Origin: an uncultured Bacteroidales bacterium
GTDB lineage: Bacteria; Bacteroidota; Bacteroidia; Bacteroidales; VadinHA17
Reading direction: 5' to 3'
Assembly (NCBI GenBank): GCA_963698535.1
Contig: CAVORD010000001.1
Location: 1,895,823-1,959,822, forward strand
Length of the DNA stretch: 64,000 nucleotides
Each line of letters opens with the position of its first letter. Position 1 is the stretch's first letter. Made by a program: the position numbers and the translations under genes. Under the pieces are notes generated by a model, which did no database searches, was not told where the DNA came from, and saw nothing but the letters and a program-made list of their open reading frames with translations. This document shows positions 44,342 to 63,535 of this stretch, in pieces.

Positions 44342-44887
44342 ATGTCTCGCGGCTATAGGATTACTGACCAACATGGCCTGTACTTTCTGACTTTTCAGGT
44401 TGTCGACTGGATAGACCTTTTCAGCCGCAAGAATTATCGTGACATTATAATTGACTCACTGAAGTATTGCATTGATAACAAGGGATTGCAGCTTTTCGCA
44501 TATGTTATTATGACCAACCACATCCATCTGATCGCAAACTGTCCTGAAGGCAATTTAAGCGATGTTATACGGGATTTCAAGAAATTCACTTCTAAAAGTT
44601 TTCTGGACATCGCGATCACAGTCACAGAAAGCCGCCGTAGCTGGATGATCGACAGATTCAGAGCACATGCTGCGTCACATAAACGCAATGAAAATTTTCA
44701 GATCTGGACACACGAAAACCACCCGATAGAACTCTATTCAGGTAAGTTTGTCAGTCAAAAACTTAATTATATTCACAATAATCCTGTAAAGGCAGGCATT
44801 GTTGAAAAACCGGAAGACTATCAATATTCAAGTGCAAGAAACTATGCCGGATTGGATGCAAAAATTGAAGTTACCTTGTTGTTTTAA
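44342..44887 (+). CDS. REP-associated tyrosine transposase (RAYT; IS200/IS605 Y1 HUH family), solitary
   Basis: HUH motif MTNHIHLIA and C-terminal NPVKAGIVEKPEDYQYSSARNY. No TnpB gene and no inverted repeats seen. Confidence 0.8.
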   Translation: MSRGYRITDQHGLYFLTFQVVDWIDLFSRKNYRDIIIDSLKYCIDNKGLQLFAYVIMTNHIHLIANCPEGNLSDVIRDFKKFTSKSFLDIAITVTESRRSWMIDRFRAHAASHKRNENFQIWTHENHPIELYSGKFVSQKLNYIHNNPVKAGIVEKPEDYQYSSARNYAGLDAKIEVTLLF

Positions 44888-45005: not shown

Positions 45006-45028
45006 GTTCGTAGTCTGAGACTACGAAC
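45006..45028. repeat. perfect 10-bp-stem palindrome (REP-like hairpin) between convergent genes
   Basis: GTTCGTAGTC-TGA-GACTACGAAC. No U-tract on either strand. Contains a GTAG tetranucleotide. Confidence 0.6.
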
Positions 45029-58500: not shown

Positions 58501-58568
58501 GTGGTGGATTAGCTTCGGTGATCCTGGAGGGGGTGATCAATAAACAATAGCCCGTTAGTGCCTGCGGG
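58501..58568. repeat. diverged copy A of an approximately 66-bp repeat family (GGATTA..CGGTGATCC...GCCCGTTAGTGCCTGCGG)
   Basis: Aligns with 58678-58746. An 18-nt identical core at 58550-58567 matches 58727-58744, offset exactly 177 bp. Confidence 0.6.
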
Positions 58569-58677
58569 GATTTTCTTTCCAGCCGGTCGCAAATTTCTTG
58601 TATAGTCAAATGCCGTTGGCTTAAGCCAATGGCATAAGTGTTGTGATGTTAAGAGGACTTCAGTCCAATAAATATGT

Positions 58678-58746
58678 AACGCGGATTACCTCCGGTGATC
58701 CGGTCTGGGGTGGCCATTCAACAAAAGCCCGTTAGTGCCTGCGGCA
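58678..58746. repeat. copy B of the same approximately 66-bp repeat family
   Basis: See copy A. Its 5' motif GCGGATTACCT recurs at 59344-59354. Confidence 0.6.
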
Positions 58747-58836
58747 CTTCGCGGGTTTGTTTCATTGCCCGCTCATGCAAGCATGGCGGGCATGAAATAA
58801 AAAACCCGCCAGCGAAGCTGAACGGGCTTTTGTTGA
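58718..58836 (-). other. approximately 120-nt rod-like nested hairpin immediately 3' of tRNA-Cys
   Basis: Outer perfect 16-bp stem: 58718-58733 pairs with 58821-58836. Middle stem CTTCGC+GGGTTT pairs with AAACCC+GCGAAG. Inner stem GCCCGC/GCGGGC. Apex CATGC-AA-GCATG. Confidence 0.55.
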
Positions 58837-58906
58837 GGTCGGTGGCGGATTCGAACCGCCGTACCTGGTTTTGCAGACCAATGCCTAGCCACTCGGCCAA
58901 CCGACC
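58836..58906 (-). tRNA. tRNA-Cys (anticodon GCA)
   Basis: Minus-strand 71 nt. Acceptor stem GGTCGGT/ACCGACC, anticodon stem TTGGT/ACCAG, loop CTGCAAA, T-arm GGCGG-TTCGAAT-CCGCC. No encoded CCA. Confidence 0.9.
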
Positions 58907-59263: not shown

Positions 59264-59471
59264 TGCTCCGTAGCTCAAAGAGCGAAGGAGTACCATATAA
59301 TAGTTATCAAAAACTCAAAAGAACAATTCTGCCTCCCGCCCCGCGGATTACCTTGTCCCGTTTTACCGGGTCCTGGCAAACTTAACGTTCGAGGTGCAAA
59401 AATAACAAAAATCGGATAATAACAAGTCACAATTGATTGTTACAGATAATTACCGGGACAGGACCCTGATC

Positions 59472-59880
59472 CTACTTCTCCACAATGGTTAGACAATAAC
59501 AGGTTTCTCCGGCATACACATCTATCCAGTACTCCTTGCCTCCTTTCTTTAGCGTGAGTGTCGACTGGTTGCCGCCAAACTCATAAACCACTCTGCCTCC
59601 GGCACTCTTTATCATGCTTGCATGACTCTCAAGCACCTTCGAGGGAACAGTCTTTGTCGTCGACTCATAGTAGATGTAGGTCAAGACTACCCTCCACTTT
59701 GCTCGTAACATTGAGGCCGGTTTTAAACGCATGCTCACCGGGATCCTCATTGTAATAGTCGGTTATCGTGTAGCCTTTCATCCGACCAAACAGAACGTGA
59801 TCTTTACTTCCTTCCATGTCCTGTGCCCTGAGCACTAAGGGAAGAAAAATAACCAGCATAAAAATGATTGATCTTTTCAT
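59472..59880 (-). pseudogene. small secreted protein, split by one +1 frameshift (about 59690)
   Basis: ORF 59665-59880 has a signal peptide and ...GLNVTSKVEG. ORF 59472-59750 continues in the +1 frame as ...VVLTYIYYESTTK.... The junction lies at a GGG run. Confidence 0.55.
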
Positions 59881-59987
59881 GACTCAATTATTATGTAACA
59901 AGTAGCGTATACCTGACATAAATTTATGCAAAAAAAAGATGACCAAATGAATCTTTGATCATCTTTTAATGTGATAATATAACTGAC

Positions 59988-60338
59988 TTATCTGGTGATG
60001 GATACAGATACCGATCCTATCTTACCGCCCATGGGTGGGTTCATTTTTCTTATCTTTACTGTCGCCTTGCCTATACCAGGCATCTCACGGTGAAGTGAGT
60101 CAAGAATACGAGATGCAACATGTTCAAGAAGCTTCGAGGTTACTTTCATCTCATTGCTTACTACCCGGTAGGCAATCTGATAATCGGCAGCATCAGATAG
60201 TGCGTCGGAGAGAGCAGCCTTATCAGTGTCGGTCTCAAATTCCAGGTCAACAATGAACTTGTTGCCGGTGAGCTGCTCCTCCGCGAAATGGCCGTGCAGC
60301 GACTGAAACTCCATTCCTTCTATCCTTATTGTTCCCAT
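59988..60338 (-). CDS. folB: dihydroneopterin aldolase
   Basis: ATG 60338 gives MGTIRIEGMEFQSLHGHFAEEQLTGNKF..., about 116 aa. Confidence 0.85.
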   Translation of the reverse strand: MGTIRIEGMEFQSLHGHFAEEQLTGNKFIVDLEFETDTDKAALSDALSDAADYQIAYRVVSNEMKVTSKLLEHVASRILDSLHREMPGIGKATVKIRKMNPPMGGKIGSVSVSITR

Positions 60339-60466
60339 AAGTATTGAAAATAAAAGACTAAAGTACTTAAAGTGAGCCAAAGTTTAAAAAGTAAAAGGCT
60401 CCGTCCTCCGACATTGTCAGACGTAGCTTTAGCAAAATCTGAAGTTTTAACGAAGGAGGATTGCAA

Positions 60467-60539
60467 GTCGGAGATCCTGACCGACTGGAAGGAGTCGAAG
60501 ATCCTGACCGAGCTATGCGAGCGTCAGGGCGTCAGGGTT
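60467..60539 (+). repeat. left copy of a 73-bp perfect direct repeat
   Basis: Identical to 61529-61601. Contains hairpins GTCGG..CCGAC and CCTGAC..GTCAGG, a duplicated GATCCTGACCGA, and tandem GCGTCAGGG x2. Confidence 0.9.
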
Positions 60540-60643
60540 ACAGGTTGTAAGTTTAAAATGAAGGTTAAATAATTAAAATCTTTAAATATTTGGTTTATAT
60601 TATAAAGTAGTTTATATTTGCAAAGTGTTTAATAACTATTTCA

Positions 60644-61228
60644 ATGGAAAAAGATAATCTGACAAACGAAGAGAGCCTTAAGATCATTACAAGCATGATC
60701 AATCAGGCAAAAGTGAATGTAAGAAACAGCAGTTTTCATCTGCTATTCTGGGGATGGCTCATATTCATATGCAGCTTATCCGATTATATCCTCTACCAGT
60801 TTTTTGACTATACCAATTCATATTATGTCTGGCTATTCGTTGTCCCCGGTATCTTTGTATCAATGATATATGGATTCAGGAACGGACGCAAGAGCAGGAT
60901 ATCTACGTATGCCGACGGTTTGTATATGTGGCTATGGATCGCTTTTATGATAACAGCCATAATCCTTTTTGTCCTTATGATAGACCGTCCTCAGGCATTT
61001 GGTCCATTTATGCTTTTGCTTGCCGGCTTTCCAACATTTATGTCGGGCATAATCCTGAAGTTCAAACCACTGGTTATCGGAGGGCTTATTTTTTGGCTGC
61101 TGAGTCTCATTTCCGGCTTCCTTAGTCCGGAGATTGCCCCTCTTGCAATGCCCGTTGCTGTGATCACCGGTTATCTCGTTCCCGGATATCTTCTTAAAAT
61201 AAGAAATGGCCATGGCGACATTCAATGA
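60644..61228 (+). CDS. hypothetical integral membrane protein (about 5 TM)
   Basis: 194-aa hydrophobic ORF. Its 3' end overlaps the downstream wHTH gene by 23 nt. Confidence 0.6.
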   Translation: MEKDNLTNEESLKIITSMINQAKVNVRNSSFHLLFWGWLIFICSLSDYILYQFFDYTNSYYVWLFVVPGIFVSMIYGFRNGRKSRISTYADGLYMWLWIAFMITAIILFVLMIDRPQAFGPFMLLLAGFPTFMSGIILKFKPLVIGGLIFWLLSLISGFLSPEIAPLAMPVAVITGYLVPGYLLKIRNGHGDIQ

Positions 61229-61508
61229 TCTTGATCCCCTCCTCCACTCGCAGCTTAGACTTGCCATTATCTCTATCCTGGCAGGAGCGGAGGTGGCGGA
61301 TTTCACCTACATACAGGATAAAACCTCCGCAACAGCAGGTAATCTGAGCGTACAGATAAGCAAACTGAAGGATGCAGGCTATATTTCCGTGGAGAAGAAA
61401 TTCAGGGGCAACTATCCGGTTACCCTTTGCCACATCACACCTCTTGGGATGCAGAAATTCAGGGAGTATGTAGATGCGCTGAAGGATTATCTGAAGACGG
61501 GAGAGTAA
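61206..61508 (+). CDS. small winged-helix (HTH_34/MarR-like) transcriptional regulator
   Basis: 100 aa. Carries LHSQLRLAIISILA...ADFTYIQDKTSATAGNLSVQISKLKDAGYISVEK. Confidence 0.75.
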   Translation: MAMATFNDLDPLLHSQLRLAIISILAGAEVADFTYIQDKTSATAGNLSVQISKLKDAGYISVEKKFRGNYPVTLCHITPLGMQKFREYVDALKDYLKTGE

Positions 61509-61528
61509 GAGGCATTGTCAAGTTGCAG

Positions 61529-61601
61529 GTCGGAGATCCTGACCGACTGGAAGGAGTCGAAGATCCTGACCGAGCTATGCGAGCGTCAGGGCGTCAGGGT
61601 T
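61529..61601 (+). repeat. right copy of the 73-bp perfect direct repeat
   Basis: Identical to 60467-60539. Flanking similarity (TTGCAR before, ACAGGTTGYARGTT after) extends the element to about 95 bp. Confidence 0.9.
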
Positions 61602-61756
61602 GCAGGTCACAGGTTGCAGGTTATTATGTGAGAAGGTAATGGATTTTGGGGAAATTCTTTAAAAACTTAAGGACGGCAGTTACAATTCCCCTCCGGATCT
61701 GTTACTGCCTGGCCTGAGATTTTCCTGAATAAAATTAAATCAACTAAACACAAAAC

Positions 61757-61789
61757 AACTTGCAACCTGCAACTTGCAACCTGCAACTT
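61757..61789. repeat. AACTTGCAACCTGC tandem micro-repeat, inverted relative to the GCAGGT/CAGGTTGCAGGTT run at 61598-61622
   Basis: AACTTGCAACCTGCAACTTGCAACCTGCAAC. Its reverse complement matches the GTTGCAGGTT motif that ends the right 73-bp repeat. Confidence 0.7.
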
Positions 61790-61837: not shown

Positions 61838-63535
61838 ATGAACAACGAATCAACAAAAGAGGGAGCAGGGGCACCGGTCAATTTTATTGAACAGATAATT
61901 ATTGACGATCTTAAGGAGGGAAAGAATGGAGGGACTCTAGTTACCCGATTCCCGCCGGAACCAAACGGATACCTCCATATTGGTCATGCCAAGGCTATAT
62001 GCCTCGATTTCGGAATGGCCCAAAAACACGGTGGTAAATGCAATCTTCGTTTCGATGATACCAATCCGGAAAAAGAAGACGTTGAGTATGTTGACTCAAT
62101 AAAAGAAGATATTAACTGGCTGGGATTCACCTGGGACGATCGTGAGTTTTATGCCTCCGACTACTTCGGGCGACTGTTTGAATTCGCCGTTGAACTTATA
62201 AACAAAGGAGCAGCATATGTCGATGATCAGCCGGCAGAAGAGATCTCCAGACAGAAAGGCACACCGGATAAGCCGGGGATTGAAAGTCCCTACCGCGAAC
62301 GCCCTGCAGGGGAAAGTCTCGATCTATTCATGAGAATGAATGCCGGTGAATTCAAGGAGGGAAGCCGTGTTTTAAGGGCTAAGGTCGATATGAGATCACC
62401 TAACATGCACATGCGTGATCCGATTATTTACCGCATCCTCGACACACCTCATCACCGTACAGGAACGAAATGGAAGGTATACCCCATGTACGATTTTGCC
62501 CACGGGCAGTCCGATTTTTTTGAAGGTGTGACACACTCTCTTTGTACTCTCGAATTCGAAGTTCACCGTCCGCTATACGACTGGTTCGTCGACCATCTTA
62601 AGGATAGTGACTACAGACCACGCCAGATCGAATTCAACAGGCTTAACCTGACATACACTGTTATGAGCAAGAGGAAACTCCTCGAACTTGTAAAAGGGAA
62701 ACTGGTAACCGGATGGGATGATCCGCGCATGCCTACACTGTGCGGATTGAGACGAAGAGGCTTCACCCCTGAGTCGATAAGAAATTTTGTGGACCTTATC
62801 GGTTATACCAAGGTTGAAGCAATTAACGATATCTCTCTGCTTGAATATGCAGTAAGAGAGGACCTTAATAAAAAAGCCCCCAGGGTTTTTGGGGTACTTG
62901 ATCCCGTTAAGCTCATTATAACTAATTATCCTGAAGGCAAAAGCGAGGAGGTTGAGATAATAAATAATCCTGAGGATGAATCGATGGGATCACGTATGGT
63001 TCCGTTCAGCAGGGAGATCTTCATTGAAAGAGATGATTTCATGGTCAGCCCGCCCCCTAAATATTTCAGGCTCTTCCCCGGTGGTGAAGTGAGGTTGAAA
63101 GGAGCATATATAATAAGGTGTACCGATGTTATAACAGACAGTACAAGCGGTGAGGTTTCGGAGATACACTGCACCTACGATCCGGAAACTATCAGCGGCG
63201 GACCCAATTCAGGCAAGAAGGTAAAGGGAACCCTGCACTGGGTTTCGGCACTTCATGCCGTTAATGCTGAAGTGAGGCTGTACGACAGATTGTTTAGTTG
63301 TGAGGACCCGCTGGATGACAGGGATGCCGATTACAAAGATTTTCTCAATCCGGAATCATTGAAGGTGCTGAATAACTGCAAGCTGGAGCCGTCACTGGCT
63401 AATGCCAACCCTCTTTTTGGTTATCAGTTCCAGCGTCTGGGATACTTCTGTGCCGACCCCGATTCAACAGCTGAAAAACCTGTTTTCAACAGAACCGTTT
63501 CTTTGAAGGATACCTGGTCGAAGATGAGCAAGTAA
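61838..63535 (+). CDS. glnS: glutamine--tRNA ligase
   Basis: Class I motifs HIGHAKA and VMSKRKL. 565 aa. Confidence 0.95.
   Translation: MNNESTKEGAGAPVNFIEQIIIDDLKEGKNGGTLVTRFPPEPNGYLHIGHAKAICLDFGMAQKHGGKCNLRFDDTNPEKEDVEYVDSIKEDINWLGFTWDDREFYASDYFGRLFEFAVELINKGAAYVDDQPAEEISRQKGTPDKPGIESPYRERPAGESLDLFMRMNAGEFKEGSRVLRAKVDMRSPNMHMRDPIIYRILDTPHHRTGTKWKVYPMYDFAHGQSDFFEGVTHSLCTLEFEVHRPLYDWFVDHLKDSDYRPRQIEFNRLNLTYTVMSKRKLLELVKGKLVTGWDDPRMPTLCGLRRRGFTPESIRNFVDLIGYTKVEAINDISLLEYAVREDLNKKAPRVFGVLDPVKLIITNYPEGKSEEVEIINNPEDESMGSRMVPFSREIFIERDDFMVSPPPKYFRLFPGGEVRLKGAYIIRCTDVITDSTSGEVSEIHCTYDPETISGGPNSGKKVKGTLHWVSALHAVNAEVRLYDRLFSCEDPLDDRDADYKDFLNPESLKVLNNCKLEPSLANANPLFGYQFQRLGYFCADPDSTAEKPVFNRTVSLKDTWSKMSK

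Follow-up and report, generated by a model that had tools for sequence, protein, structure and literature searches.

Two identical direct repeats stand on either side of a two-gene operon in the stretch of Bacteroidales DNA that we analysed (64 kb in full; hereafter the window), and they raise the question of what kind of structure they form with the genes between them. An earlier note, made from the sequence, had put forward three answers: a MITE- or REP-like element inserted on both sides of the genes, the ends of a small mobile cassette, or paired regulator-binding or terminator modules. We asked which of these accounts best for the repeats themselves, for the genes that they enclose and for the same locus in related genomes.

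A perfect repeat pair around two overlapping genes

The genes concerned, their neighbours and the two repeat copies are as follows.

59988-60338, minus strand: folB, encoding dihydroneopterin aldolase (116 aa), the next gene to the left of the operon, from which it diverges
60461-60545, plus strand: repeat copy 1 (perfect part 60467-60539), in the divergent intergenic region between folB and the membrane-protein gene, upstream of a conserved promoter block
60644-61228, plus strand: gene for a membrane protein of 194 aa with multiple transmembrane segments, no Pfam or NCBIfam match
61206-61508, plus strand: gene for a winged-helix (wHTH) protein of 100 aa, Pfam HTH_34 at 93 bits
61523-61607, plus strand: repeat copy 2 (perfect part 61529-61601), adjoining the left arm of a palindromic element
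61838-63535, plus strand: glnS, encoding glutaminyl-tRNA synthetase (565 aa), the next gene to the right

The repeats bracket exactly two overlapping genes, as had been claimed, the membrane-protein gene and the HTH_34 gene sharing 23 nt. Homologues of the membrane protein number more than 1000 and come almost entirely from Bacteroidales metagenomes; its family is without a curated entry. Copy 2 starts 14 nt past the wHTH stop codon (61508).

The two tracts 60467-60539 and 61529-61601 agree at 73 of 73 nucleotides, and ungapped extension to 60461-60545 and 61523-61607 retains 83 of 85 (98%), in the same orientation and at a spacing of 1062. With up to three mismatches allowed, the 64-kb window holds no further match to the 73-mer, and in a shuffle control 0 of 100 shuffles matched; the perfect 73-bp direct repeats of the earlier note are therefore exact at both sites and found nowhere else in the window. 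Its figure of about 95 bp for the looser similarity is generous but fair, in that 85 nt hold at 98% whereas the next ~8 nt show a merely heptamer-like likeness (12 of 17 matches). The identity breaks off precisely at flanks of heptamer-like sequence, each with its own local variant (A versus G, both at 60466/61528 and at 60540/61602). The flanks of copy 1, ATTGCAAGTC and GTTACAGGTT, are likewise heptamer-like and match each other at only 6 of 10 positions. Farther out, similarity between the 100-nt flanks beyond the repeats is not significant (423 of 2000 shuffles scored as well on the left, 176 of 2000 on the right), and a larger duplication taking in the 3' end of the wHTH gene was rejected for this lack of significant extended homology.

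Internal structure and coding status

Each repeat copy contains GATCCTGACCGA twice, 27 nt apart, together with a tandem of GCGTCAGG (2.1 copies), and it is predicted to fold into a nested three-way junction that holds two inner hairpins; the internal organization described in the earlier note, with its two hairpins, duplicated motif and tandem motif, is thus confirmed. The repeat contains a 27-nt hairpin module, CCTGACCGAG-N5-CGAGCGTCAGGG, whose geometry is that of a 7-bp stem with a 14-nt loop.

60503-60529, plus strand: hairpin module in copy 1
61565-61591, plus strand: hairpin module in copy 2

The longest complementary arms in the repeat are an internal 9-nt pair, GATCCTGAC/GTCAGGGTT, two G-T pairs included; internal complementarity was found in CCTGAC/GTCAGG. 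RNA folding over 96 nt gave -34.1 and -32.3 kcal/mol (z -2.25 and -0.83), and DNA folding of a 67-nt core, delimited below, gave -12.6 kcal/mol on either strand (z about -2). A secondary structure is accordingly predicted to be plausible but statistically not strong, its stability as RNA being only modestly better than that of shuffles (z -0.8 to -2.25). The GC content of the repeat, 60%, is set against 27% in the rest of the intergenic spacer. The repeat is non-coding, because the spurious ORFs that cover it lie in different frames in copy 1 and copy 2, as had been noted before, and because the frame tested (frame b, 30 aa) found no homologue, with 0 matches among 1.84 billion protein representatives. 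A search of Rfam with the repeat gave no match near the gathering score.

The enclosed operon is ancestral

The gene order, with folB pointing left and the membrane-protein gene, the wHTH gene and glnS following to the right, is kept in contig L012 (membrane protein 73% identical) and in contigs L013 and L014 (61%). Contig L041 (folB 77%) likewise has folB divergent from the membrane-protein gene, and L167 (72%) and L168 (70%) have the membrane-protein gene, then the wHTH gene, then a plus-strand gene cut by the contig end. None of these contigs carries the repeat at the operon. The two intergenic regions measure 305 and 329 nt in the window against 171-196 and 63-154 nt in the relatives, and the extra DNA in the window consists of the repeat copies and a palindrome of ~190 bp. 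Judged by gene order, then, the membrane/wHTH operon is ancestral and syntenic, and the genes between the repeats are no recent insertion, since the same order recurs, free of the repeat, in Bacteroidales relatives at 61-77% protein identity.

This contradicts the proposal that the repeats are mobile-cassette ends: relatives as distant as 61% identity have the gene pair beside folB (and glnS) with no repeat there. The empty site predicted to follow from loss of the cassette, with folB directly next to glnS, was not found among the relatives. The two do lie side by side in L164-166, but this results solely from an inversion of the entire folB/membrane/wHTH block, whose three genes are still together. 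In L162 a 71-aa ORF and an MFS transporter gene lie between folB and glnS.

A conserved promoter block and a terminator-like palindrome

Two other elements share the intergenic regions with the repeats.

60588-60631, plus strand: AT-rich block resembling a promoter or operator, with a TAnnTTTG box and 17-nt direct repeats GTTTATATTAYAAAGTA (2.3 copies)
61599-61787, plus strand: palindromic element of ~190 bp with heptamer arrays as its inverted arms (GTTGCAG/GTCACAG ... CAACYTG) and a T-rich run after it

Across the window, L012, L013 and L041 the AT-rich block, TTTGGTTTATAT...TTTATATTT, shows no variation; its TTTGGTTTATAT seed recurs in L014, and L167 carries the block with a single mismatch in that seed. 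The block was not seen upstream of the membrane-protein gene of a further contig, L011, or in the 72 nt covered for L168. From this pattern of conservation we infer that the 17-nt repeat block is a likelier target of the wHTH protein than the 73-mer, and a candidate operator. The repeat itself was rejected as an HTH_34 operator for want of co-conservation, being missing in L011-L014, L041, L167 and L168, all of which keep the regulator. Nor does it qualify as an intrinsic terminator: it has no U-tract, its 3' flank reads GGTTRCAGG, and a consensus scan made no call at either copy. On these same observations, the option of paired regulator-binding or terminator modules is unsupported.

The palindrome is predicted to form an RNA hairpin of -73.2 kcal/mol (z -6.9), and a shorter version in L168 (-47.5 kcal/mol, z -7.7) is followed by T8; against Rfam the palindrome gave only a sub-threshold match to a plant miRNA hairpin. 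The predicted folds point to the palindrome at 61599-61787, separate from the repeat, as the terminator-like hairpin of the operon. Tracts related to (GTTRCAR)n, the kind of heptamer that makes up its arms, occur in at least 120 JGI metagenome contigs.

An insertion polymorphism at copy 2 in a mosaic relative

The closest relative, and the sole close one in the protein collection, comes from Logan sample SRR21856587 and is represented by contigs L011 and L040. L011 has both the membrane-protein and wHTH genes, the membrane protein being 94% identical to that of the window (88.6% at the nucleotide level). It shares the same 13 nt from the wHTH stop codon to GTTGCAGGTC and then passes straight into the palindrome, such that window and relative differ here by a 77-nt indel made up of a 67-nt core and one extra GTTGCAGGTC.

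61522-61531, plus strand: left 10-bp direct repeat GTTGCAGGTC, flanking the core; single-copy in L011
61532-61598, plus strand: 67-nt insertion core, missing from L011
61599-61608, plus strand: right 10-bp direct repeat GTTGCAGGTC, which also supplies the opening heptamer units of the palindrome's left arm

As a sequence signature, this 77-nt difference would fit an insertion with a 10-bp duplication, or the precise loss of one; tandem heptamer tracts, which are present at both copies, can by themselves mimic a target-site duplication. On the other side of the operon, L040, which carries the folB side, stops 2 nt short of copy 1, at window position 60458, and the other end of L040 and the right end of L011 likewise lie in repeats. 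Contig ends placed at the repeats suggest a branch point there in the SRR21856587 population.

Divergence from this relative is uneven along the locus. The operon is 89.1% identical to that of L011 (94 differences in 865 positions, mostly synonymous), whereas the folB side is 96.5% identical (38 in 1071) and the palindrome 99.5% (1 in 188); other proteins common to the window and the SRR21856587 relative are 97-98% identical. Where the window has the conserved promoter block, L011 has a DUF1579-like gene. L011 may come from another strain or a paralogous locus, or may be a chimeric contig. The mosaic would reflect either such a different strain or locus, or replacement of the operon allele by recombination ending near the repeat sites. 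Because the L011 cassette is only 89% identical as against 96.5% on the folB side, the case for an orthologous empty site for copy 2 is weakened.

A related hairpin module at another locus

An nhmmer search of the relatives' loci (153 kb) matched the repeat to positions 100-140 of L012 (E 0.0012). Here positions 111-137 read CCTGACCGAG-TGAAA-CGAGCGTCAGGG, compared with CCTGACCGAG-CTATG-CGAGCGTCAGGG in the window, so that all 22 specified bases agree at the same spacing, and GTCGAAG upstream of the module is common to both. In L012 the module sits among (CTATGTA)n heptamers on the 3' side of an OmpA-like gene, as a single unit where the window repeat is a nested double unit. Because it stands at a different locus, the hairpin sequence exists beyond one duplication event. 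The three known instances are all in or beside tandem heptamers, and none is farther than about 1.5 kb from the same gene neighbourhood; no further instance of the module was present in the ~1.07 Mb of DNA retrieved.

Wider scans returned nothing that we could assign to the same element. The pattern GATCCTGACCGA-N10-20-GATCCTGACCGA had 10 matches in GTDB species-representative genomes, none in Bacteroidota, and these were judged to be chance, all being on high-GC Actinomycetota or Dehalococcoidia contigs. The core 22-mer had 0 matches in JGI metagenomes; viral contigs, searched with a 19-mer, a 17-mer, the palindrome arm and the hairpin module, gave seed-length chance matches or none; and neither PLSDB plasmids nor INPHARED phages matched the repeat. 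At least 120 JGI heptamer-tract loci were also searched for the core or the centre of the palindrome, and neither was found.

Comparison with known repeat families

REPs and REPINs are repetitive extragenic palindromes mobilised by RAYT Y1 transposases. The window repeat resembles them in being a short, GC-rich, imperfect palindrome, intergenic and placed, as they often are, just 3' of a gene; in occurring as monomers and as nested or paired units; in its presence or absence between strains; and in having no terminal inverted repeats (TIRs). The window moreover contains a Y1_Tnp gene, encoding an IS200-like transposase, at 44342-44887. By contrast with REP systems, however, this Y1 gene is not flanked by the repeat, its flanks containing neither the repeat nor the hairpin module, and the 7-bp stem and 14-nt loop seen here differ from the 8-9 bp and 4-5-nt loop of REPs. 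A REP is described as a palindrome of 20-40 bp, one end of which (the foot of the stem) carries GTAG or CGTC as an unpaired tag (PMC3733652), whereas the window repeat is without GTAG and has CGTC only at the loop/stem junction, leaving no unpaired terminal tag. As to dispersal, a property of REPs and MITEs alike, the instances known here are two copies in 64 kb and one related module in L012.

Bacterial MITEs, such as Correia/NEMIS, ERIC, RUP and BOX, offer a second comparison. Like them, the repeat is small (67-85 bp), non-coding, structured as a single strand and intergenic, and it shows an insertion polymorphism against L011 (possibly another strain or locus) with a 10-bp flanking direct repeat at copy 2. 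Unlike them, it lacks TIRs (no inverted pair of at least 14 nt at the repeat ends), its copy 1 flanks agree as poorly as described above, and no parent IS was identified; a blastn-short search found no related ends elsewhere in the window. Integron attC sites and Vibrio-type cassette repeats are also structured repeats of ~60-130 bp that bracket small gene cassettes in the same orientation. Their inverse RYYYAAC...GTTRRRY cores contrast, however, with the direct, non-complementary GTTGCAG...GTTGCAG ends found here, and the genes enclosed here are syntenic in relatives and have their own conserved promoter, with only two repeats in 64 kb. The repeat thus carries no canonical REP, MITE or attC hallmark.

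Tandem heptanucleotide arrays (LSSRs) with the unit TAACTGA have been described in Beggiatoaceae, Cyanobacteria and Bacteroidetes (PMC4679880). The DNA at the insertion site and the palindrome arms are likewise tandem heptamer tracts; the unit sequence is a different one, however, the 67-nt core is no heptamer array, and the arrays here form the inverted arms of a terminator-like hairpin.

Origin of the repeats

The reading that we favour, with a probability of roughly 0.6, is that the repeat is a lineage-specific REP/MITE-like hairpin element recently copied into heptamer tracts on both sides of the ancestral operon. The MITE/REP option of the earlier note fits best among those it raised, on account of the copy 2 empty site, the lack of both copies in distant relatives and the L012 module, although the canonical hallmarks of either class are lacking. 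The 67-nt core would be built on CCTGACCGAG-N5-CGAGCGTCAGGG to which one further left arm and one further right arm are added, yielding the nested three-way junction, and the element would have been copied into GTTRCAR-like heptamer tracts in both of the intergenic regions that border the operon. Copy 2 would be recent, missing as it is in the closest relative and bounded by a perfect 10-bp GTTGCAGGTC duplication; copy 1 is probably older and the source of copy 2, because its flanks match at only 6 of 10 positions. The copying seems to have been transposition-like, possibly by an enzyme acting in trans, and the repeat would have no dedicated role for the operon. Two by-products might follow: an extra RNA hairpin in the 3' UTR of the operon, just before the terminator-like palindrome, and occasional deletion of the operon by homologous recombination across the 73-85 bp of direct homology. 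A bolder version, in which an undescribed family of Bacteroidales hairpin modules inserts specifically into heptamer tracts, is perhaps mobilised by the Y1 transposase encoded 16 kb away and marks hot spots for swapping operon alleles, strikes us as quite unlikely.

A serious competitor, if on balance an unlikely one, is a purely local event, in which the 73-nt tract was copied once over 1 kb by replication template switching or ectopic gene conversion, priming on the heptamer-like microhomologies TTGCARGTC / GGTTRCAGGT, without a mobile family or an enzyme. Such an event would suit two copies 1062 bp apart in one orientation with no other in 64 kb, an identity that stops at heptamer-like flanks with their local variants, the want of any match in the public collections scanned (GTDB, JGI, PLSDB, INPHARED), and the absence of TIRs and of a clean target-site duplication at copy 1. 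It does not, however, account for a related module at another locus in a genome of only about 70% nucleotide identity, and an insertion would be expected to leave just such a clean 10-bp duplication as copy 2 shows; a 67-nt insertion would in addition need two coordinated template switches, a rarer outcome than deletion or duplication of an interval. Mis-assembly, with the 85-bp segment duplicated artificially, is barely credible: although the relative's short-read contigs break at these very positions, the gene order is that of the relatives, the copies differ in their flanks, with two mismatches there, the source contig is 2.15 Mb long (2,148,961 bp), and the independent L011 assembly supports the palindrome at 99.5%.

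The repeats might alternatively serve the operon as functional cis-elements on both sides, whether as wHTH sites, as an insulator or as modules at RNA 3' ends. All three known instances are in the folB/membrane/wHTH neighbourhood, copy 2 and the L012 copy both sit just 3' of an operon, and the 7-bp inverted repeat with its conserved CGAG direct repeats and variable 5-nt centre is reminiscent of a protein-recognition site. That clustering is nevertheless confounded by ascertainment, since the sampling of relatives was confined to this neighbourhood, and the two copies, one upstream of the promoter (copy 1) and the other past the stop codon (copy 2), could not act equivalently. With the repeat missing from L011, L013, L014, L041, L167 and L168 while the regulator is kept, with the AT-rich 17-nt promoter block as the conserved candidate operator instead, and with neither a U-tract nor a terminator call, we consider a controlling role improbable. 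Less probable still is that the repeats are att- or attC-like boundaries of an excisable or exchangeable two-gene cassette. Same-orientation direct repeats around exactly two genes do invite the idea, as do a cassette at 89% identity to the Logan relative between outside DNA at 96.5% and 99.5%, and a folB-glnS interval whose content varies at depth (an MFS transporter instead, in L162). Yet the cassette is syntenic and repeat-free in relatives and is present in L011 without the right-hand repeat, there are no R''/R' attC core sites, and the cassette has its own conserved promoter.

Implications

To our knowledge, few REP/MITE-type elements have been described in Bacteroidales, and a literature search on such repeats found little. 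What is unusual about this locus is confined to its association with heptamer tracts and its mosaic divergence, and current understanding is not overturned. For annotators, the locus is a warning that these direct repeats are no mark of a mobile cassette, and a search for the operator of the wHTH protein is directed to the conserved 17-nt repeat block. The 73-85 bp of homology flags a spot at which a conserved operon could be deleted. If our favoured reading is true, a hairpin element copied into heptamer tracts would add to the Bacteroidales a small structured repeat, tied to tracts that are common in metagenomes.

Divergence of the operon and its borders

Two contigs from a single metagenome sample (Logan SRR21856587), that of the closest relative, diverge from the window as a mosaic. 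The membrane-protein/wHTH operon (60644-61508) is 89.1% identical to the contig on the operon side, L011, and the folB side (59388-60458) is 96.5% identical to the other contig, L040. Diverged sequence gives way to near-identical sequence within ~13 nt of the site where the second copy of the 85-mer hairpin repeat is inserted and where L011 is without 77 nt present in the window. Judged from sequence, the operon's left border varies between strains, since the DNA directly upstream of the membrane gene departs from the usual folB/promoter block in two relatives: L011 carries a DUF1579-like gene (19-564, 181 aa) 23 nt upstream of the membrane gene, and in L168, from a more distant relative, the stretch upstream of that gene (1-72) begins with (GTGACGN)4, a heptamer tract rich in GC.

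Neighbouring features

59472-59880, minus strand: gene downstream of folB, split by a frameshift into ORFs of 71 and 92 aa
58894-59263: tandem duplication, 177-bp unit, 2.1 copies, 98%
58835-58906, minus strand: tRNA-Cys
44342-44887, plus strand: IS200-like Y1 transposase/RAYT-like gene, 181 aa (Pfam Y1_Tnp, 26.7 bits)
45006-45028: perfect palindrome, 11-bp arms, GTAG inside, single-copy within the window

The relative has an unbroken copy of the split gene (135 aa; L040 579-986); the window's version is therefore a pseudogene, unless the frameshift is a sequencing error. The tandem duplication, within which one end of L040 lies, starts among the final 13 nt of the tRNA-Cys interval, and weaker similarity at 177-nt spacing is found upstream of it (58506-58744). 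The Y1 transposase gene has a counterpart of 97% identity in the Logan relative, and its flanks hold no copy of the 85-mer.

A palindrome of inverted heptamers

61599-61787: palindromic element, ~190 bp, with arms of inverted tandem heptamers (GTTGCAG/GTCACAG versus CAACYTG)

This element, 3' of the operon, is 99.5% identical in L011, yet the adjacent genes reach just 89%. Its RNA hairpin has a folding energy of -73 kcal/mol (z -6.9), and it is probably the operon's terminator, because a shorter version in L168 (938-1091) is followed by T8.

Searching JGI metagenome contigs with the heptamer-tract pattern GTTGCARGTYRCARGTTGCARGTT returned matches in at least 120 (L042-L161). Among the matches listed, contig GC ranges from 0.32 to 0.70, arrays reach ~19 units, and convergent inverted arrays resembling the palindrome occur in 10 of 120. 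As far as could be found, the literature holds no published description of this heptamer unit; the closest published analogue of the tracts is the TAACTGA arrays (PMC4679880).
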